Below are positions 14,377 through 63,852 of a stretch of 64,000 nucleotides of DNA, piece after piece. The position numbers were made by a program, and so were the translations under genes. This DNA comes from Lama guanicoe. Lineage: Eukaryota. The stretch lies in NCBI GenBank assembly GCA_013239625.1, contig MU053304.1, positions 1,860,001 to 1,924,000 on the forward strand, read 5' to 3'. The notes beneath the pieces are model-generated. The model did no database searches. It was not told the origin of the DNA and saw only the letters and a program-made list of their open reading frames with translations. Position 1 is the stretch's first letter. The number at the start of each line of letters is the position of its first letter.

Positions 14377-17300
14377 TTCTTCTTGTTTTAGATAAGAAAA
14401 ATGTTAGCACTTTGCTGCAAATACTGGCTTGTTTTTATTTAGCATCCTTTCTGGACTGGTATGTCTGTTTCAATGATCTAGACTTCCTGCATTAATATCA
14501 CAATTTAAATGATGCTGCTTTATAATTCTTTCAAAACTTTCCTCATATTTTTGCCCTCTCCACTTTTTATATGAAAATTGTAATTGTTCAGTGAGCTGTC
14601 CCTGCCCCACTTCGCCAAAAATCCTGCTTGAGTTTTGATTGTACATGAGTGAAATCTGCATATAAATTTTGGAAGACCAGACATCAATTAGTCCTTTATG
14701 AGGGAGACAAGTCTTACTTAGTATGTATTTGTGGAACTGAGCTCTTCAGATGCTTTGCTCATTCAGTCTCGATTCCAGATTTGCTTTGTGAGCTGCTAGA
14801 TGTTTAGCATGCAAGCGCTGTCTTATAGTTAGTGTTTATTTAGTTCTAGAATGCACGTGTCAGAATCTCCTACTCAGGGTTTTGTAAAATGTTGCTAGAA
14901 AACATGAGTAACTTAGAATTTGCACAGCTGTCTGTAGGAGCACTCTGTCCAGAACCCCTTGGAGGCTGGGAATACTTTCTTTACTACTACGTCGATATTG
15001 AAGTGATACAGTGTTTGACTTTTCATCCTTTTCAGCTAAAATCACTATCTTGTGCTCAATAACGTTGCCTTTGGTGCTAATATTTTAATCAAAGTGATAT
15101 ACTCAATCATAGCTACATATTTTTGACAGAATAATTTACATTAGCTCAAAATGTTCAACAGTGGTTATTTTAGTAGGGTTGGGGTAAATACTGGCAGAAA
15201 TACTGTATTGATTGATACAGAATCAATAACAACAATAAGAAAAATAAGCCCAGCTGACATTGGCTGTCTTACAGTTGCCAGTTTTTTTTTCTTAGCTAAT
15301 TTAATTCTTAAAATATCCCTATGAGGTAGATACTGTTTTTATTCCCATTTTTACAGATGAGAGAACTGAGACACTGAGAGATTAAGCAACTCACTTCTGT
15401 TTTTCTCCTTTGCCCTTTCACAAAGATGTGGAAATGACAGTGCTGGTAAGTAGCTGTGTGAGAAGCATTTTTGATGCCACGGGGTTTTAGAACTGGAAGC
15501 AATGTCTTCACATCATTTAGTTGCGGTCTGCTCTTGTCACCATTCAGGTTAGTTCTGAAAACTATGATGTTCAATATGCAGAAATACACAAAGTAAGAAT
15601 TCCCCCATTTTCTTTTCTTCTTATCTATTTTACTCACCAAGAAAGTTCCACTAGCAGTTTGAAATGTCTTCTCCCGGACATTCTTTTTCTGTATTTTAAT
15701 AGCATTTCCAAATTTCAGAGCGAGTTGTGGGGCACACGCTGGAGTAGAAGGCAGCTCTTATGACTCGAGGGAAGTGTTCCTGAAGGTGCCATGGTGGCTC
15801 CTGCCCCAGGGAAGCCCTAGGGGGTCAAGGAGATGGTTGGGATGCTTCTGTGGCCACCTGTCTGGGGGTAAGCCCTGGTCATAAATTAGCTGGTCTTTTC
15901 CAGGCAAGCCAACAAATTTAAATAAATTTTCCCTGCAGGTATGAAAAGAAGGTGCTATCAGTAGAAAGTGCTTGTCCACTGACATATTAGCTTGTCATCT
16001 GTGCGCCACAAGGAAATGAGATTGTTCTAAGCATCTGGTTAGAGGACTTTACTTTCTGTGAGTCTGTAAGACTTCTAACGTCCCCTGGTATAGTTGGTGT
16101 TGACTGAATGAATAGATTCTGTTGAAGTTCAGTGTGCTTGAAGTTCGGGTGACAAGTGGTCACCTGGTAAAATAGAAGATGAACAGACTTTGCCTAAATA
16201 AACACTGGAGAATGATTAGGGACACTAGATTGTGCCCACAAATGTGATTGCTGAAAAAGCACATATTCTGTGCTCTCTGAACTTGAGACATATTTTCTAC
16301 AGCTCTCATAACCTTATAATGTCACCTTTGATACTTTTTGGTCACTCTTTCTACAAATGCCCAAGTCCATCCAGAAGCAACAACCATCTACTTGCTTTAA
16401 AGGTGGACGTTTCAGAGATCAGGGCACCCACAGGCATGGTCATAGAGAGCCATTCAAGGGCCATTTCGCTGCATTTCTGGGTGCTGTCTCAGAGTGTCCA
16501 ACCCACAATGTTCAGACATGAACTTCTTTTTCTCAGCTTTGCTGTGATCCAGGGAAAATCAATCAACACGGTGTCATTCCAGACATTTTGCTTTGTTTCC
16601 CATTTTCCAGGTCTTATTGAGGAAGATTTCAGCTTGGGAGGGTAAGAAGCCCACGGCTCTCTGTCTCTCTGATGCACTAGACTCCATGTATTGCTTGAGG
16701 GTCCTTTAAGGGCTGACTTATTCTCACCTCTGTCTTGGAGTTGCTGACTTGACCCCAACGCGGGCAACGATTCCCAAAGCTCTCCCTAACATTTCCATCC
16801 AGCGAGGACTCAGTATGGTGACTCAGGTGTTGTTGAGTTGCCTTAGTAAGTCCACCATAGTAAAGCGCGAAGAGTCTTTATAAGGCTAATAGTAATGTAT
16901 AAACAGTCCTGTACTTTAAATGAACTTAAGCATAATTATCTATAGCACATCTGAGGCATTATCTACAAAGTCCTCCTTACTAGACTATGGGACAGCTGTG
17001 AGCTTTAGTTAGGATCATAACCGAACCCTGACGATCACGTATTTTTCATTTAATTATTGCACCAATTCTATGAGCGAAGTTCTATTATTATCACATGCAT
17101 TTTACAGCTTAGAAAATGGAGGCACTGGCCCAGCATGTGATTGGCAAAGTTAGGACAGAGATCTAGAGAGTTTGGATTCAGCGTCCAGTCACCCAACCAG
17201 CATCCAGAACCGTGCACAACAAATTTTCCATTTCTTTTTCTTCCTTCCCTTCCTGGGAACAAAAAAGAGCAGTGGGGAGGAAGAGGAAAGGGAAAGAGCA

Positions 17301-22705: not shown

Positions 22706-23486
22706 GAGTGGAACTACAGACAAATGGACGCCAATATGGTGAACTTGGACTTTGTTACAGCGATCCAAAGACAGATGGAGTTGAAGTTTATATTTGTATA
22801 GTTTATGAGAAAATGGTGTGCTAAAATTCACAGCATTTCCAATGTTGCAAGGGGATTATACAGGCCACTTACAAAAATAAATTCAAGCATTCTCGAGAGA
22901 CCTTGGCATTTACATGCAATGCATGTAAATATAACTGGTTCTAGCCTTGTCCTTATTCCGGGGCTTTTTAATTTATTGAAGAATGTCAGGATTTCTGTGT
23001 GCTCTCACGTTTGCTGTTTATTTATGTGATTGTTATATAATCGAAAATTAAGAAAACGGTCTTTCTCAAGCACTCCGAAATCAATACTGTCCCCGGTGTT
23101 TAGAGGAGTTTACGGCTGGTCCTTTATGACAGGGTTTCCACGTTGTGAGGCTGTGTGGTGCTGCTGGGAAGGATCTGAATCTGGATTTGTTGCTGTTAAG
23201 CTACCAGGGAGAGAGCCTGGGCTCCTTTTATTAAATAATTTTTTCTTAATTAATTTTAAATGTGAAATATTTACAAATCTCAAAAGACTGAGTGACCAGT
23301 ATGACACATACCTCTGCAGCCCCAACTTTTATGTTTTTCCCCAATTATTTTTTATTATCGATAGAAGCAACTGAATCATCAGATACTAGTAATATTAAAG
23401 CTATTAGCTGTATACTAGTTCCGCTTGGTCTCTGTTTCTTAAGTGGACACGAAATTGCAAGTGTGCGTTTAAGAATAGAGTTTACA

Positions 23487-23893
23487 GCCACCCCCCAGTG
23501 AAGACAAGCCCGCAGCCCGGTCTCTGCAGCCACTCACAATGGTGCACCCTGAGGGGACTCGGAATAAGAAAGAAAAGGTTACTGGCTCTAAATAGCTAGG
23601 TGCTTGTCAAAGGAATGAATTCAATGAGCCCAAATATTTGCTTCCTCCCATACATAGAAAAGCACTAAATCCTTTAACTTGAGATGCCTAGTTTTCTTTA
23701 GCTAACACGTAATCTTTTATTGTTCCAACTACCTGGTCTTGTTGTAAAGCTCCCATACATCCTAGCTCCTCCCCTACCTCTTCAGAGCAGTCCCTCAGAG
23801 CCATCCGAGAGGCTGTCATCCCAGCTGGAGCCCTCCCGCCAAATAAAACATAACTCTCAAAAAAAAAAAAAAAAAGAAAGAAAGAAAGAAAGA
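23487..23893 (+). mobile_element. Polyadenylated ERV LTR (U3-R) retrocopy
   Basis: Homologous to the LTR at 36631-37134 but ends AATAAA-acataactctc-A17-(GAAA)n; 16-bp TSD aagaatag(a/g)gtttaca. Confidence 0.85.
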
Positions 23894-24481
23894 AAGAATA
23901 GGGTTTACAAACCCCCCAAAAGAACAAGGTTTACAAACCCCGCTGGGCTCCCCTGTGCAGAGGCATCCCGGGCTCTGTGGAGTTTCGCACTACTGCACGA
24001 GTGACCTTGCTATATGCTGAGACTGGGCTGGTGAGATTAGGTGGGTGGACAGCAGGGTTTGACTTGATCTCTCTGGATAATGAAACATTGCGATAATTGA
24101 AATGCACTTAGGATGGTATTGTTTTCCCACTATTCAGGTTAAGCTATTCGCAGAAAATAGGGAGATGAATTTCCATAGGGTGAGTGTACCAGAAGTCAAG
24201 GCAGATGGAGAGGGGGTTTGGGAGGGTTGCACTGCTGGGCTGGTGTGTGTGTGTGCACGTGTGTTCACGTGTGTGTGTCGAATTTCATGCTGGTTTCCTA
24301 CAGGCCTGCCTTGTCCAGGCGTCACCTTTCCTTCTCATGCCTCTGCCACCCACCTGCGTTGTCAAGGTTTCTCCTTCCATTTGTGGGACCGAGGGTGGGT
24401 GCTATGAAGGCTCTGGTTCACTCAAAGGGGGTTGACTTCATGGGGCCAGTAAGATGGGGACTGTGTACAGCCTTCGTCATT

Positions 24482-32600: not shown

Positions 32601-34808
32601 AAATGTCACCATTCTCTGTACCCTGATTTTTGTCATAAAGCTACTGTTGAGCTTCAGTAATTAAGATCAAGTGGGATAAAGGATGTCCTATTTACTGCAT
32701 TTGATTTGTGTCTTTTGAAATTAGTATGAGGTTGAAACACCTGCTTTTCGTTTTTTTAGTATCTCTGTGGTGGATGTGCTCTGGTGTCGGCAAACACCAG
32801 GCGTATTTGGGGCCTTTCCACGGCAGGTTGTCACGCTGGGGCTAGAGCCACCTGCAGCAGACGCTCCCACCTACAGAGCCCCACCGGAGTCCTCCGCCCA
32901 GGGAGCAGGCTGAGCCGCGTGTCCAGGCGAGCGTGATGACTTAAGGTGCATCGGCAATGCTCGCTTGGTTCTGGCATCACCCCAGGACATGAGAGATTAA
33001 TAGCGTTGTAGATGGCAGACCTTCCAAGGGCTTCGACTTTGTCTAGAGTCTAGACGCCCAGAGAGGGGGATGGCTCCGTAAGTGGATGGAGCCTGCCAGA
33101 ATCTATTCTTCCTTGTACAGTAGCGTTTCTGGGCACAGACAAGGGAGAGAGGGACACACCCTCTCCATGAGTGTGTTTTCGGGGAGGTCTGTGAGTTGGC
33201 GGACATGATAGGTAATGTGTGCTCTCATTTTGATACCAGCACCCTGGATCGCAGATGCCCACTTTATAATTGAGCATCACTGCAAGAATCAGGGCTTGGC
33301 AATGAGACAAAGAAAGCAGTAATAAATAAATGATGCATTTGTTTCAAATAAGGGTCAAAAGTTACCATGGCATCACATGACAAAGGTTTTAAGGAATGAG
33401 GAAAGGATACAGGAGGATTTAGCACCACATGGCCCTCCTGGCCCCAGTAAGTAGCCCGTGGTGGCCCATGGAAGTAGCACAGGCGGGCAAGTTCAAGAGA
33501 ACCTTCATGGGGCATGGTCACCTCATGAAGAGCAAAACAATATTCTCTGCTACATTAGATTAATTTACATTTGACTAGTTTTGTCATTTTTGATAAAGTG
33601 TTGTATTTTCATTGTGTATTTTTTGTATCATTTTGAGCAACAATTTCAATTTCAGTTTCAACTTAGATCAACTGAGTGTCTGTGCTCCTTGTTCGCCAGT
33701 AACGGGGGCCCTTTATTTTTCAAGTTTCATACAATTCTCTGCTCCGGGCAGGGCCGGACTCTCAGAAACCCGGACTCTTTGCTGGATCTCACTTACCCCT
33801 CTTCCTGTGGATGCATTGCAGTGACTTGAGAGAGGCGTTCCTTTTCGGCCACCAGGATCCTAGAGAAGGGATGCTCACTGAAAAAACCCTGTGTTTTGTC
33901 CTCTAGAGAACAATTCTGAACCCTCACGTTGGACCGCTTGGGAAACACACCTCAGAGTGGGGAAATGTCGCCCAAAGTCCTGCTTTATTGAAGATTAGGG
34001 ATGTCAGCCCCCTGCTCTCCTTTCCTGCTTGTTTGAAACCCTTTCCCAGGTTCAGAACTGAGTGACAGATGAGGTGATGTTGCAGGCTGGGGACGAGGAG
34101 CCGATGGCGGAACATGACCGAGTAAAGAAGCCATCTTGGCCTCCAGCTTCACCTACTGTGGCTTCGCAAACCAGCCTCCAAGGGCCCGTTAAAAAAGTAC
34201 CATCCTCAGAACAGGCTGCCATTTTCTGGGAATGTTTCTGAGGCGTCCATCCTGCTGTAAAAAGCATCAGCTCTGCTGATGTTCATGAGAAATTTAAAAA
34301 TCAAGACAGTTTGCAGAAAGGGGAGCATAAGGTTGTGAGAGGGGTTAGAAGACAGAATTTGAAATCTGGGTCCAAGGAATGACCAACACGTGGTGCCTCT
34401 CCAGACTGTTTCAGACGAAGTTGGGAGATTCCTATATGTCGATCCAAGGATAGGACTTTGGGGTCAGCGTGACTCTGGTCCTGATTATACAGAATGTTGG
34501 ACTTCAGGTGACTGTATCTTGGGTCATGTGCGGTAAATACAACTTCATAATAAAGTCATACTACACTGTACATTTGATTTCCCCGATGAGCCAGGAGGAG
34601 AGTGGGGATTGTTCCCTTGATTTTCTGTATGAGGGAACTGCAGTTCAGAACTTATGTTCAGTCAGGAGGGGTGGTGGGGCTGGTACCCGGGCCCAAGAGT
34701 CCAGGTTCTTAGTTCTGTTCTTTGCCTGGTCCTTTAGCTTAGAGATAACCCTGGGCTAGCCCCAGAAAAACTACAAGGAAGTCTTTTGGGTCCACAGACC
34801 TACCTCTT

Positions 34809-35093
34809 TTTAAAAATTTTTTTAAATCATTTTTTTATTGAAGTATAGTTAGTTTCCAATGTGTCAGTTTCTGGTGTACAGCATAATGTTTCATTCATAC
34901 ATATACATAGATTCATTTTCATATTCTTTTTCATTATAGGTTACAACAAGATATTGAATATAGTTCCCTGTGCTATACAGAAGAAACGTGTTATCTATTT
35001 TATATATAGTAGTTAACATTTGCAAATCTTGAGCTCCCAATTTATCCCTTCCCACCCCTTTTCCCCCTGGTAACCATAAATTTGTTTACTATG
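34809..35093 (-). mobile_element. L1 3' end
   Basis: Perfect 16-bp TSD cacagacctacctctt (34793-34808 and 35094-35109). Confidence 0.92.
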
Positions 35094-35561
35094 CACAGAC
35101 CTACCTCTTGCCCCAAGAAATTGTGACTCTGCTAGTGAAATGTCCTGCAGGAGGGTCTCGAAGGTGGTTAGGAAAGAGGGCAGAGATAGGGCTGGTGTAG
35201 CCTGACTGTCGATCTGGCCTCACTGGCTCCCAGGGGACTCAGGAGAAGCTGGATAGGTTGAGGAAAACTTGAACATTCCATCTAGTTGTGTTTCATTTTT
35301 TTTTTCTGCTGTATCCCCAGTTCCCAGATACTCATCTTCAAGTGTAAATCTCAAGCTCCTTTTAGTGCTAGATGTAAAATTATTTTTGCTTTCCTCCTGG
35401 CTGGCTTTGTCTAGGCCATTAAGTCCTCCATTAGTGTGTATGATTAGGAACTGAAGGGTCAGCAGTTGTGAAGAGTGGCTGAAACGAAGATTGATGATCT
35501 TTGGACTTAATAGTAGACGTAGTCATTTGTTTCTTTTGTGGGTTGGAAGGTGGGATTTAGA

Positions 35562-35659: not shown

Positions 35660-36630
35660 TTGGCCATTTGTTTCTGAACATGTGCTTGGATTCACCTGGC
35701 TCAAACTGTCCTTCCCGAAAGGTGAATGATTAAAGGGGAAAAAAAATCCAGAAAACTTAGTAGCATTTAATTTTTTTCAGGAAGGCAAAAATATAGTAAA
35801 AACAACCTGGGTTTGATTTGTCACTGTGTCATATGTTATGTTTGTGGTGTGTGTTCATGGCTCTTGAGTCTTAAGATTTCTTGCCTACAAACTGGCGTTG
35901 ATAACACTTGCCTAACAGGATCACTTTGAGGTTTAGAAATGGTGTTCGTAACGGATTAGAACGCTGCTACAGAATGCTCGCTCAGCGTATGAGAACTTTT
36001 ATCATCAGCTTTATTTTCTATGCAATATACTGAATGTGCACGTCTCCTAAATTGAGGGTGATGTGACTATAATTTAGGAGAACTGCCTCTTTGGCAGTCA
36101 TATATTTGCATGCTTGATTTTGCTTTTTACAATAGTACGCACTGATTGCCAAACTACTAAAAATGCAACTGTAGTCATTGCTAATGCTGTTTGGATTTTA
36201 TTTCTTCTCTTTACCAACAAAACTTCTGTTTTTGGAAGCAACATTTATAGAACAAACTGGCTATTAATCTATATTATAGTCAGCAAAATTAGATTTTTTA
36301 ATGGCTTTGTACGCCAAAAATCCTCCCTGCTGAGCTGGAGACAATAAAGATACTGGTAACCGGACCTCACATCAGACATTTTGTGATGCAAACGTAATGA
36401 GGACACAGATGTGACTGAATTTTAAATAGAGCTGAGTCATTGTTTTATTGTATAGCAGGTTACTTGCACTTTGTCTAAAATATGCAAATATGTACTTGGA
36501 TCAAAATAATTTTGTATATTGGACTAGGTTCTTGTGTTATAACACATAGTAATATAGCTGGGGCTGCCATTTTAAGATTTCATATTAATTCACCCAGTTC
36601 TCCTTTGTGAATGAAAAGTATTGCCAGTCA

Positions 36631-37134
36631 TATCAGTAAACAAAGGATGCTGTGGCCATCAAGTCATCGGCTACTACCATACCACCTCCCCGACCCCTGC
36701 ATCCCCAACAGTGAGCAGAGGGAACTCATGATGTTGACAAGCAGGCAGCCTGGCTTCTGCAGCCACCCCCAGTGGTGCCCCCTGAGGGGACTCAGGATAT
36801 GGAAGAGGAGGATCCTGGCCCTAGATGGCCAGGTGCATATCAAAGGAATGATTTCAGTGAGCCTAGATCTTTGCACCTTCCTGTACTTAGAAAAGCGCTA
36901 AAGTCCTTAACCTGAGATAGCTGGTTTTCTTTAATTAACAGTAATATTTGGATGTTCTGACCATCTGGTCTTTTGTTGCAAACACTCCTATATATCCTGG
37001 CTTCTACCTTGCCACTTCGGAAGAGTCTCTTAGAGCCATCTGAGAGGCTGTCACCCAGGCTTGAGTCCTCAGGGAATCTGCCAAATAAAACATAACTCTC
37101 CACTTTCAGGTTGTGCATTGTATTTCAGTCGACA
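36631..37134 (+). mobile_element. ERV solo LTR retaining U5
   Basis: ccctgaggggactc, TATA-like ctatatat, AATAAA at 37084, then U5 ending tttcagtcgaca. 5' boundary approximate; no TSD recognised. Confidence 0.75.
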
Positions 37135-37568
37135 CCTTCCATATACGTATAGATGTGATAAAATAGTTCACAGAGTTATTCACAGGATCTGGAGGTTTGC
37201 ACAAAGGATCAAACATAACTGGTTTGGAAGTTGTCGTTCCTGATTTTGGTCAAAATGGAAGCTGAGCTGAGCACGTTGGTGCTGGCCACCCCCATCCCCA
37301 GGCCATTCCCTGCACAGTGCAAAGGAGAGTGAGCCCAGAAGGTTTCAGGCAGTGCTGGGCCCACAGCTGGGTTGCTGGGACTGCAGCTGTCTCAGTGGAC
37401 ACCCCTCATGGACAGCCAGCTCATCCCCAGTCTAATCTGCTGACGCTTTGCACCCAGAGCCCTCTTCTCCCTGACCTGAGGTGCCCTCGCTGGCAGTAGC
37501 TGGCCCTATCACATACCTCTTCCTTTAGAGTGCATTGCTCTCTGGGACATTGGAAAAAATTGATTTAT

Positions 37569-49312: not shown

Positions 49313-50921
49313 GTTGAGGCTTTTGTTCTTCTTCCTTACTTAATAAGGTGCCTCTTCTTTCTATAATAGTAGTATCTGTGTCAAATCTGTATTGAAAGTT
49401 CCTTAACTGATTCTGCTGCTCAAATTACTAAAAATCTGGTGCATTCTACCTATCCCTTAATATCACACACAAATTCCCACTTGGTTATTTCTCTCTGTAC
49501 CTACACTCCTCTCTAGGTGCTAGGAGGCCACCATGTCCCCTTGGTGACCTGCGTGGTCTGGGCGACGTGGTGTGTTCCTTCAGTGTTTGTAGGTTCTCTT
49601 CCTGGGCTTCCTTGGTTTCCTCAAACACCCCTCCCATTGCCTGGATGACTCTGCTCACTGAGCATGGGTATAAATGAGGGAGAGAGGTGACCTAGGGTGT
49701 GCACTGTGCTCCTCTGGACCCTCTGTCATGTCAATGCAAGCTGAGTAGCCATCAGTAGGATCCTGAATCACAGAGCTGGAGGCGGCCTTGAGATGTTTCA
49801 CCCCAGCCCCTTGATGCACAAGGTATGTGTATCAAGAGCAGGCATGCGACTTGCCCACGCCGCTCAGCCAGCTGCACACCAGGGCTGATGCCAGGACTCT
49901 GGTTGCTCCCCTGGCTCCATTTCCAACTAGTAAATTCCTTTCCGCTGCTTCTTTTGTGAGAGCGGCCACAGCCATCCAAGAGACTGGCTCTGCGACCTGC
50001 TTGTAAGCTGCTCATTTCATATCTGCAATGATCAAGCCCCTTCTCTCTTTCAGTATTAGGAACTTTAAGTCAGTCAGACAGTCAAAATGGTTGACACACA
50101 CATGCAGGGTTTTAATTGACAATTAGACTGCTCTGGGAATGTCCAAGTTCTTGCAGCTGACCCTTGTGTTGGACTGAGAGCCCTCTGAGGGCCAGGACTG
50201 GGCTTTCTTCATCCTCCTGACCTGTCTTCTGGGCACCCGACCTGGCACATCATGCTCGATAAATGTCACTTGAATTGCTGAGCAGCCCTATTGAGTTTTC
50301 TGTAAAAGTACAGGAGAAGTAGGAATGAAGCCCACTGAGTGACTAATCTAGCAAGGAAGGCTCACCAGAAGGTAGTTGTGTGTCTCCCCAGGTCCCCCGT
50401 CACCAGGTAATGCAGATGTAGGTGTTCACGTGAGGTATTTCGCAGCAGCCCTGGTAGCTTTGACATCCTTTATCTAATGACCCTGCAAATGGGCCTCTTT
50501 TATCTCTGTTTTAAGTTTGACGTTTCATCCTTCTCTTTGCATGCAGAGGGCACTGAAATTGCCAAAAACATGGGCAGCAGATAGTTTAAGGAAGGAAAAC
50601 AGGTCATGGCTAAAGTATCACCTGAGACTGCTTTCCAGTCACGAGTCCTGGCGCTGGCAGGCACCTGTGCTCTGGCCTTGCCTGCCATCCCACCCTGTGT
50701 TCACCCCCCAAAATGCTCTTGATTGTGTATATTTAACATAAGTGAAAAGTTGAAAATAAAATGTGGAAAGAATGATTTTGGGCTAGCTCTATGATGTGAA
50801 AAAATTTGGCTTAAATAGATGGATTAATCGATGCAATAAACCAACAGCATTTTAATAAATGAGCTTGTCAGTTACTACAGACAGAAACCACTAACCCATG
50901 GGCTTTCTCTTTACTCTTTCT

Positions 50922-51048
50922 TTTTGGGGGGGAGTAATTGGGTTTATTTATTGATTGATTTTTTTTAATGGAGATACCGGGGATTGAACCCAGGACCTTG
51001 TGCATGCTAAGCATGCACTCTACTACTGAACTATACCCTCCCCACCCC
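50922..51048 (-). mobile_element. Vic-1-like SINE
   Basis: TSD tctttactctttct. Confidence 0.9.
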
Positions 51049-52424
51049 TTCTTTACTCTTTCTTAAAGCTGATACTACAAAGTCTTTATCCTCCCCACCA
51101 TCATTAAAAGCTAGAAATTATAGCCGAGAAGATATTGCCTGTTAAATTTTGAGTGTCCCCAAAGTCAGGTCTATTAATTATGATATTTTGCCTTATTATG
51201 CATTTTGGCAGTTTGGTTATTTTCTGTTTATAGGTCAATGTAATGGAATTCAAGGGCAGCAGTGACCTCTGCAACAGAACTTTTTCCCTGTGAGATAAAA
51301 TACACATACAAACTTAAAAAAAAATTCAATAAGCTGTGTGCAGAGAAACAGGACTTACAATAAATATTTATGATGCCAAGATTCTGCTTAAAGGTTAATG
51401 ATTGCATTTTATCTTGTATTTGCTGTTATGCAATTGAAAAGATTGATTAAAAAAAAAAATGAAACTAGCCTGAAGTTAGGTGGTTGTCATTGTTAGTGAA
51501 GCAACTAGCAGAAAACCCAAGGGAGTAGATGGCTAGGAAGCGACTATTTTAAAGAAGGGATCAATGACCTCATAGTGCATTTAACGCTCGCTTTGTATTC
51601 ACTGCGTGTGGGTACGTGTGGGCACGTGTGTGTGTGTGTGTGTGCGTGCGTCTGTGCAAGTCATCCCATCACTCACTGCTTTGAATCCCTTTAGAAATCT
51701 ATACAACTGATAGTTTAATTTTTAGCTTTTATCTCCTTTTTTTCTTTACCAAGAGCGTTCCTGGCCGTCTACGTTAGTCATTGCTTCTTTAATTGCACGT
51801 GACATTCCTGCCTTTCTCTGTCAAGCCGGGACAGCAGCACTTAAACCCTATCCCTTATCCTCAGCGTATTTTCTTTCCCTCTTTATTCCCTCACCCGGTG
51901 GAACTGACTCCTGGGCTGGTGAACTGGGCGTGGCCGTGGGGCCTGCCCCGCCCACCCAGCCCTCTGCGCCTGCGCCCCGCCGCTGCCAGTAAGGGACGGG
52001 CTTCAGGCAGTGCCTCACCTGGAGGGTCGCCAGGGACCAGAGCACGATGGCTTGTGCACTGGTGCGGAGAGCCGCCTGTGATCCCCAGTAAGCCCAGACT
52101 CCTCCTGCGCTCGTCAAGGCCAAGGCTGCAGGTCAACAGAGACTCCTCCCACTTTTAAAAGCTGATTTAAAGTAGTCTAGTCGCTGTAAAAACACCACAG
52201 TGGGGATGAGTGAGACGCTTCTTGACTTAAATTCTCGAGACCTGGGGGTGGGCCTTGGGGAATCCTAATTTTACCCAACAATACACCTCGCAGGTCCGGC
52301 AACCCCTTGTACGTGTATAGCATCATTCATTCACTCACTCATTCAGTGTGTACTCAGCAGCTGCAGGGTGCAGGGCGCTGTTCAAGAGTTGGGGCCACAC
52401 AGGTAAGCGAAACAGAAAAAATAA

Positions 52425-54720: not shown

Positions 54721-56013
54721 ATTGTAAATATTTAAAATTATTTACACTTTAAATATTTTCTTCAGACACCGACCCATCTACTTTTATCTGCCATTCTGTG
54801 AAGGATTTGCCAAGTGATAGCATAGAATGAACAATGTGGTATTTTTGGAGCTTCATTTTATTCTATCCCAAATCCCTTAATCCTCCTAAAGGAGTTTGCT
54901 GGAAATTATTTGACAAGGATAATTAGCAGAACGAGTAGCTGTTTTTCCATGCAGAATTCTATCTGCGTGTGTGTTTAAGAATGAACTCATTTCAACAAGA
55001 GAAATTGAGGGTCCCGTTTCTCTGTAGTCTATTCTCCACTCAATTCTGTTTTATTACCAGCCCTGAGAAGCCAGGGCAGATCAGATAGAGGTCTAATTTT
55101 CTGTTATCACAGAGGCAAGTGATAATTGAATAAGCTCTGTGAACACTCCTGAACGCTTGGGCTGTCTGGGGAGAAGCATTGTTACATTGTTTCATTTTAC
55201 ATTGTTTTTGTATCATCTCCGAGTAATAACAAAGGACTAGTCAGAGGTCAGCAAAGGACTCAGAGATAAGCACCTTCCTTAGAACATGAACAGAATTTAA
55301 AGATATGCAACTGAATTTTTATCTCCCATATCCAGCAGGGTCTCATTTCTCTGTAATCACCCTCCAAAATAATGAGGTAGAAACCATCATGAAACTCTGC
55401 TTCACGTAAGTCATCATCATGATGCCTTCTAGCTTGCTGTTGTCATGCAAGCTGATCATTTTGGAGCCTTTAATTAAAAAACATCACCTTAAATAGAATG
55501 GTTCATCAGGTAGGAAACTGGAAGTTATAGGTAAGTGCATCTGTAAGGGAGATGAACTGGACAGTCATTTTTCATGAGGAAATCCTTCAATGGTCCAGGA
55601 TGTGGAAAAGGAGATTTCAATTTAGATTCTTAGTATTGTTTGTCATGACCCGCAGCTAAAAATATCAGAGTTGGTGTATTCCTAATGAGCCTTGATTTTT
55701 AACTATTTTTGCCTTAGAAAATTCCTCTAAACACGCGTTCCTGAAATCCACATTATTTAGGGCCTTGGGTTGGGGGAGGCTTTTCTCCATGAACTTCATA
55801 CTTCTTTGCTGGACGCCTGTTATCTGCAGAAGGGTTAAATGTTAGGACGACCTTGGGGAGCGCCCCCCAACAGCACAAGTAGTTAAAAATGCATATTCCA
55901 CAGGAGCAGCGTTTCTGTTAGAGCAGCAGCTCTGAGCCACGGAGCTCATTTCCCAGCGACCGCAACACTTTTCTTATGAGAGAATAATTGACCCATTTAC
56001 GGTCTTGTTTCAG

Positions 56014-56319
56014 CTTGTTGCAGATCCTTGCGCCAGCAACCCGTGTCACCATGGCAACTGCAGCAGCAGCAGCAGCCGCAGCGATGGCTACCTCTGCATT
56101 TGCAACGAAGGCTATGAAGGTCCAAACTGTGAACAGACACCTGCCAGTGTCCCAGCCTCTGGCTGGACAGAGTCCATGGCACCCAGACAGCTTCAGCCTG
56201 TCCCGGCTACCCAGGAACCTGACATAATTCTGCCCAGCTCTCAGGCAACTGTCACTCTGCCCACGTGGCAGCCGAAAACAGGGCAGAAAGTTGTCGAAAT
56301 GAAATGGGATCAAGTGGAG
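56014..56319 (+). CDS. DNER: DNER coding exon 2 (EGF-like repeat plus Ser/Thr/Pro-rich linker)
   Basis: Translation LVADPCASNPCHHGNCSSSSSRSDGYLCICNEGYEGPNCEQ...WQPKTGQKVVEMKWDQVE matches DNER as I recall it. Acceptor ttgtttcag ends at 56013; donor GAG|gtgaga at 56320; 306 nt, phase 0/0. Confidence 0.97.
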
Positions 56320-57713
56320 GTGAGAAAATTTTAGTGAATATGTTTTTATATAAGGAACCAGTACAGTTAAAATAGCTTCAGTGGTTCTAATATCAGCAGT
56401 AAAAATGGAATAACTTCCACATTGAACAAAATGATATGCCTGACTTCTTTCCTGTCTGCATTTGTGTACAGGAACTCTGTCTCATTTATGCAAATGAGAC
56501 TTTTCAGTTATGATTGTTTTGCACCATGAAAAGAGTAAACAAGAAAAGAAAATGAATGAAATTATTTTCTGGAATGATATCCACATACATTTCTGTGAGA
56601 TAATCTTAGACTCGGGGGCAGGTAGCTCAATGAAGAGTCATAGAAACAAGCGTATCACAGACCCTCCATTATTGACTAATCTTACTTCATGGACTTTTAT
56701 GCTCCATTTTTTGTTTGTTTGTTACTGTTTAGGTTTTATATTTTGTAACTTGTAGCCCTTTAATGGGAATTGGGGGGGGGAAGCCATCATTGATTTTAAA
56801 AATCCTTTTGGCAATGCATTTGAGAATGATATTTCCAAATTTTATTCATTTTGGCAGCAGCAAATTCTGTTTATTGAATCTTGTCCAGTCTGGGTTGAGT
56901 TTACTGTATTTTCAAACTCATCAAAAGTCTCACTTTGAGGGTTTTCCAGCAGACCTTTAAAAGTTGACATAAAATATAAATATTAGGAGAACTGAAGAAC
57001 AATTGAAGTCATGAATTTGAGGTGACATGGGCAGAGGGTAATTCCATTCCGTATCTTATCCTTTATAAGACCCCCCCATAGACCTGTGGTTGTAGATTAT
57101 TACAGGTTTTGTAGCTTAAGTGAAAATAAAAACAAAACAAAACCCATATAGGTCTTTGTGTAGCATTTTTAGAGTCTAAGAATATGTCTAGAAACTTTGC
57201 TTCTTGTTATCAAAGAGGTAAGGCAGCATTTCTTGTTTTATTTTCTTGGGTAATTCTAACCAGTTGACCCGCTTTTTTTTTTTTCATTGCCACATGATTT
57301 GTGAAGACCCCATTCAGCCTGCAGGGCAGTTCTTATTCTACCTGTTCTAATTTGAGACTTGAAATAGGGGTTTTGAAGTTATGATTTTAATACCTCTTTG
57401 CTGAAGGACTCACTTCTTGAATGTGAACTAGATTTGGTTCCACGTTTACAAGGAGGTATCCTTTAAAGAAAATTTCCCCCAACCTGCCATTTCAATCTAT
57501 TTCTGTAAAGACATGCTATCCTACAGTCCATAAACGTAAAAAAGAAACGACTCATCTTCTTGTCACTCTGTTATTTGTTCGCCTGTTTAAAAAGCAGGTT
57601 AAAAGTGTCGGAGGGAGCCGTGAATATATTTCTGGACAAATAAGTTCTACGCAGTGGGAGTGGAGTGTAAGTGCTGAGAATTTCTGTGTTGTTCTCAGTG
57701 ATGATGGATACTT

Positions 57714-63290: not shown

Positions 63291-63415
63291 TGTTACTCTT
63301 TTTAAAGATAGCCGTCTTGTTTCACAAGCTCCTTCTGAGGGACAGTGTCTGGCTTCCTCGTGATGATAAATTGGTGACACTTACACACTGCCAGCTCCTT
63401 TTACAAAATCTTTTT

Positions 63416-63816
63416 TTTTTACATTTTTTTATTGATTCATAATCATTTTACAGTGTTGTGTCAAATTCCAGTGTTCAGCATGTTCAGCACAATTTTTCAG
63501 TCATTCATGGACATATACACACTCATTGTCACATTTTTTTCTCTGTGATTTATCATAACATTTTGTGTATATTTCCCTGTGCTATATAGTGTAATCTTGT
63601 TTATCTATTCTACAATTTTGAAATCCCAGTCTATCCCTTCCCACCCTCTACCCCCCCCGTAACCACAAGTCTGTATTCTCTGTCCATGAGTCTATTTCTG
63701 TCCTGTATTTATGCTTTGTTTTTGTTTGTTTTTGTTTTTTAGATTCCACATATGAGCGATCTCATATGGTATTTTTCTTTCTCTTTCTGGCTTATGTCAT
63801 TCTAAGTGAAGTAAGC
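63416..63816 (-). mobile_element. L1 3' end with 5' inversion
   Basis: TSD tacaaaatcttttt (63402-63415 and 63817-63830); last 22 nt in the opposite orientation. Confidence 0.9.
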
Positions 63817-63852
63817 TACAAAATCTTTTTATCTAAAAGAAACAAGATTTCT

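Follow-up and report, generated by a model that had tools for sequence, protein, structure and literature searches.

A polyadenylated, 5'-truncated copy of a retroviral LTR in the guanaco genome, very probably inserted by L1

We describe here a copy of an endogenous retrovirus (ERV) LTR in the guanaco genome that stops shortly after its own polyadenylation signal, runs into a poly(A) tail and is flanked by a long target-site duplication (TSD). This tailed structure, at 23471-23909 of the window (the whole stretch of 64 kb that was analysed, to which all positions refer), is real and, whatever RNA served as template, was very probably made by L1-type target-primed reverse transcription. The poly(A), the 16-bp duplication, the TCTT/AA nick, the 5' truncation, the lack of U5 and the internal controls, namely SINEs and a solo LTR of the same window, support the L1 mechanism well, and with it the view of the earlier note that L1 rather than an integrase was responsible. 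L1 retroposition of an LTR-terminated RNA is a known process, of which the tailed copy is a real example.

All parts of the insertion are described on the + strand. The left copy of the TSD (16 bp, 23471-23486) is directly preceded by TTT, which places the bottom-strand nick at TCTT/AA, and is followed by a 372-bp LTR piece (23487-23858) that probably comprises U3 and R. The polyadenylation signal of the LTR, AATAAA, is found at 23842-23847, and the LTR-derived part stops at 23858, 11 nt past it. The tail (23859-23893) consists of 17 A (23859-23875) followed by (GAAA)4 and GA, and the right copy of the TSD (23894-23909) matches the left one at 15 of 16 positions, with one mismatch. The polyadenylated U3-R copy with a 16-bp TSD, a ttt/aaga site and an A17 plus (GAAA)n tail, as first read in the earlier note, is thus confirmed in the sequence. 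The right TSD copy and its flank (23894-23941) are repeated again 26 bp further on, the weaker third copy of the target sequence (23920-23941), in a local repeat of 26-bp period, being 13/16 identical to the left copy; this repeat may predate the insertion or be a by-product of it. The C-rich flank that comes after the right TSD copy is also similar to the bases with which the element begins.

The window holds a second member of the family, an integrase-type solo LTR of 529 bp (36606-37134, + strand), which starts with TG, ends with CA and lies between the copies of a perfect 4-bp duplication (36602-36605 and 37135-37138). Its start had been placed at 36631, which is 25 bp short of the real start at 36606 as defined by the TG and the duplication. 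TG..CA ends together with a duplication of 4-6 bp are found at this LTR and are absent from 23487-23858; one of the two family copies in the window is tailed. BLAST and local alignment match 23503-23858 to 36736-37100 (76.8% identity over 366 columns, E 2e-74), so that the alignment claimed before for 23487-23858 holds for this part, whereas 23487-23502 has no alignment to the 36.6-kb copy and is recognized as family sequence by sequencing contigs only. The solo LTR runs on for 34 nt beyond the end of the tailed copy (23858 corresponds to 37100) as far as its CA, as had been proposed in saying that it continues into U5, and within these 34 nt there is a stretch rich in G and T, of the kind that is expected to follow a cleavage site. 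Seven bp of the solo LTR just before AATAAA are missing from the tailed copy. The 4-bp duplication fits ERV1 elements, and the U5 end seems to resemble MER34/MER39-type LTRs.

The solo LTR also has a TATATA motif at 36989, 95 nt before its AATAAA, with a counterpart near 23754 in the tailed copy. By motif and position, this counterpart (23752-23760), which is the homologue of the solo LTR's TATATA box but has decayed, is a putative U3 core promoter. If the motif is indeed the promoter, the tailed copy is mostly U3 with a short R. The stretch of the copy that precedes the TATA-like position measures about 270 nt (~267 nt). The point at which the copy ends provides an approximate natural map of the cleavage site of the LTR family. 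The R/U5 boundary that it was said to map is placed by it approximately rather than exactly, to within 1-2 nt, as one or two A at the start of the tail may have come from the template.

The solo LTR at 36606-37134 was considered as the direct source of the tailed copy and is ruled out by the 77% identity and by the different 5' part. In its 5' third there is a segment that is seemingly absent from the closer relatives of the tailed copy. Searching the 64-kb window by nhmmer with each copy as a single query gave no third clear family member; the best other hit (15767-16040, E 0.024, to the solo LTR) is perhaps an older related LTR, or is due to chance.

A quite different origin would be that of an ordinary solo LTR, made by integrase, which lost both ends or gained an unrelated poly(A), the two 16-mers being a pre-existing local repeat. 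The site is in fact locally repetitive, with its third similar 16-mer (13/16) at 23920, and both this repeat and the mismatch in the TSD count against the L1 reading. The left 16-mer, nevertheless, has no other match of at least 14/16 on either strand of the whole 64-kb window, the next best being the 13/16 one at 23920. Pairs of 16-mers matching at 15/16 with a spacing of 300-520 bp are found in the whole window as 8 overlapping pairs, which make only 4 loci. The TSD of the tailed copy is one of the four; among the rest are 8957/9477 and two pairs that enclose A/T-tailed fragments, which we take to be L1 3' ends. Decay of a solo LTR would moreover have to combine, all by chance, a pair of deletions with endpoints exactly at the 16-mers, a tail beginning 11 nt past AATAAA and, at the left border, a nick of the L1 type. 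On the other side, none of the 15 joints listed (of 38) in the contig alignments described below skips the element, and the right flank has no depth in any of the 4 runs, the zero depth at 23880-24220 reflecting a record filter and being no finding. Taken together, we consider such a decayed solo LTR very unlikely. Two A/T-tailed minus-strand fragments, at 34791-35108 and 63402-63830, which we likewise take to be L1 3' ends, have duplications of about 16 and 12-14 bp.

The window offers its own controls for the type of insertion. A TCTT/AA nick like that of the tailed copy is seen at a tRNA-like SINE at 50925-51044 (50908-51064 with its flanks), whose 15-bp duplication is perfect, and a second SINE shows a 13-bp duplication at TTTT/AA. 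Nine copies of this tRNA-like SINE, presumably Vic-1, were examined in the window; about half have convincing duplications, the others being shorter, mismatched or of low complexity. The contrasting control is the integrase-made solo LTR, with a duplication of only 4 bp. The usual duplication of L1 and Alu insertions is about 15 bp (PMC2912911), and in mammals L1 is able to mobilise polyadenylated RNA of any kind, that of ERVs included (PMC7245038).

In the sequence of events that we propose, a Pol II transcript would have read through the U3 of an LTR from a high-copy ERV family, and the AATAAA of this LTR would have directed its cleavage and polyadenylation. The ORF2p of L1 would then have nicked the bottom strand at TCTT/AA and, with the poly(A) tail as the priming site, begun reverse transcription; the synthesis would have halted after about 370 nt, and a second nick 16 nt away would have led to the duplication. 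The GAAA microsatellite probably grew on the tail later. Both the enzyme and the order of these steps are deduced from the anatomy of the insertion.

Sequencing runs provided evidence on the insertion and on its family. A search for runs gave 24, which fall under five organism codes, and in 14 of these 72-77% of the words sampled are present; contigs from 4 of the 24 (three DNA runs and the RNA run X16) were aligned to the locus at 80% likeness. In all three DNA runs, from organisms A, E and D and from two studies, one long contig bridges the 5' junction, with 0 other letters and with 63, 31 and 31 letters inside the element, the last two just meeting the bridging rule. The insertion is thus no assembly artefact and is common to these organisms, being present in individuals other than the one assembled. 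The contigs aligned per DNA run number 3,461, 4,631 and 3,584, almost all of them on the element and most of them 80-95% alike, which indicates a large LTR family with many possible source loci. The summed depth on the element, about 3,000-19,000 times that of the flank, is no copy number and serves only as a sign of a large family. To judge by these contigs, the family includes relatives much closer to the tailed copy than the 36.6-kb LTR. In the RNA run X16 there are 832 family contigs, a number that does not show transcription.

The same alignments define the 5' edge of the copy. Family depth rises abruptly at 23484-23519, from which it follows that 23487-23502 is family sequence, and 14 contigs of run X1 extend 5' of 23487, including a 12-nt motif that is also present in the solo LTR at 36657. 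The tailed copy is therefore 5'-truncated, and would lack about 70 nt of the LTR start provided that the source subfamily and the solo LTR share a colinear 5' end. Towards the other edge, the family alignments clip near 23821, at the 7-bp gap of the tailed copy, and the tail is skipped as a repeat; the loose ends listed there are 24 of 903 rows. Depth is highest in the bin 23772-23807, near the expected start of R. A class of copies made of R only was considered and is unsupported, as this top bin is only 1.0-1.3 times the next highest and loose ends before 23778 are few, with only 2 contigs per run (X1 and X9).

Regarding age, at least 11 positions of the tailed copy differ from at least 98% of the family depth in run X1 (40 of 103 rows), that is, at least 3% of its length, a figure that includes changes of the donor before copying. 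Only 133 of the 3,461 contigs of this run are 99% alike or better to the tailed copy. The rare letters and the TSD mismatch point to an age of millions of years, the substitution rate behind this estimate being good to an order of magnitude only. The tailed copy is an old insertion and a dead one; nothing about it points to a function, given that the downstream U5 element was lost and the TATA-like box is decayed.

The RNA that was copied can be discussed in terms of three sources, namely a proviral transcript, an orphan L1 3' transduction and a host transcript. For this reason, the earlier proposal that an ERV transcript was mobilised in trans holds as regards mobilisation by L1, the ERV transcript being only one of the three. 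The single most likely template, to which we give about an even chance, is a proviral ERV transcript, possibly a non-autonomous one, whose 3' end was copied as in the processed pseudogenes of HERV-W. The roughly 267 nt found upstream of the TATA-like box suggest that the RNA began upstream of the promoter of this LTR, as would be the case for a proviral 3' end. In alpaca, ERV1 elements that are short and probably non-autonomous have been described in large clusters (PMC8605555), and such elements would be plausible donors.

HERV-W (LTR17) processed pseudogenes share with the tailed copy a U3-R end without U5, a poly(A), a TT/AAAA-type site and a long duplication (PMC5016936, PMC5537654), and all the 3' hallmarks given in PMC5016936 are present in the guanaco copy. 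There are also differences: the host lineage and the LTR family are others, and the tailed copy has no 5' R-U5 and no internal genes. HERV-W duplications measure 5-15 bp (PMC5016936), the 16 bp found here being 1 bp above that range, and processed pseudogenes make up 135 of 213 HERV-W elements, whereas one tailed copy is known here. The HERV-W processed pseudogene is thus the closest kind for the tailed copy, whose membership of the proviral class is putative. The prior for that class is lowered by the fact that HERV-W is described in reviews as the sole human ERV group so mobilised on a large scale (PMC5537654).

The tailed copy contains no internal viral sequence or 5' R-U5 and is truncated inside U3; a copy cut at this level would be the same product whether it came from a proviral transcript, from an orphan L1 3' transduction or from a host transcript. 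In the second case an L1 would have been read past its weak poly(A) signal into an adjoining solo LTR, and truncation would have removed all L1 sequence; in the third, a solo LTR would have formed the end of a host mRNA or lncRNA, which was retrocopied and truncated. These two make together a substantial possibility, to which we nonetheless assign less than an even chance. The ERV would then merely donate a poly(A) signal, and there would be no family of retroposed copies. Orphan transductions, whose mechanism is treated in PMC9311842, are, as in the present case, short, 5'-truncated, tailed and duplication-flanked, with no L1 sequence (PMC4859970, where they are tabulated, and PMC6425141), although the donor must then lie downstream of a source L1. 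In the human germline, 3' transductions are found with about 20% of new L1 insertions (PMC6425141), and a large LTR family implies many solo LTRs able to end transcripts, with an identical product. Nothing direct speaks against such an origin; proviral transcripts, however, end at the LTR signal by design and would be the more natural donors.

A further source would be a composite, SVA-like, non-autonomous retroposon with an LTR U3-R tail, truncated to its 3' end. SVA does contain a part derived from the LTR of an ERV, the HERV-K10-derived SINE-R that forms its 3' portion, and it is moved by L1 (PMC5753468), while the tailed copy has no VNTR, Alu-like or other composite part. A joint from 23814 to 23489, found in one contig of each of the 3 DNA runs, hints at rearranged family copies and indicates a tandem or nested LTR pair somewhere in the genome. 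The at least 11 rare positions and the 133 contigs at 99% or better described above argue against any large, young group of siblings, and no such camelid element was found among the papers listed in the literature searches. We therefore regard a composite donor as highly improbable.

In the case of the tarsier, TINE1, TINE2 and TINE3 are also derived from an LTR, use the LTR's own poly(A) signal and were mobilised by L1 (PMC5059674), reaching about 30,000 copies. TINEs, however, begin at the TATA box of the LTR (PMC5059674), while the tailed copy includes some 270 nt upstream of its TATA-like box, assigned by motif, and is for this reason not TINE-like. With HERV-W processed pseudogenes and tarsier TINEs as precedents, LTR-derived retroposons are no unrecognised class in mammals.

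Whether the guanaco LTR family was retroposed by L1 repeatedly, so that tailed U3-R copies flanked by long duplications would number from tens to hundreds, is a separate question, and we think it rather doubtful that it was. No report of tailed LTR copies in camelids was found, including in two camel repeat papers, in a search to which subscription papers, Repbase and Dfam were largely closed. Were the family to exist, repeat libraries would be counting its tailed U3-R copies as ordinary solo LTRs and, if these are common, the counts and the dating of solo LTRs would be biased. It would also represent a non-primate counterpart of the HERV-W processed pseudogenes, and so would allow one to examine which properties of an ERV RNA suit it as a substrate for L1. 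HERV-W is the only human ERV group described as spread mainly by L1, through determinants that are unknown (PMC5537654), and a second family of this kind outside primates would make the question comparable across lineages. A single insertion, in turn, is a tidy but ordinary product of the loose choice of polyadenylated RNA by L1. The tailed copy is also a possible presence/absence marker.

Some further observations concern the family and the locus. The 20-nt end motif of the copy had 0 matches in viral contigs, and its 5 matches in metagenome contigs were rejected as chance, with no homology beyond the motif. In run X9, a contig of 453 nt, with a depth of about 8 times that of single-copy sequence, corresponds to 23661-23820 and then continues for about 300 more letters; it may represent an LTR with the proviral leader, common to several loci. 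Regarding the host gene, an exon encoding an EGF domain, with plausible splice sites, is found on the + strand at 55936-56334 (coding near 56014-56319). A protein atlas describes its product only as 'EGF-like'; the peptide may be from DNER. If the tailed element lies in an upstream intron of this gene, both LTR pieces are in the sense orientation with respect to it.
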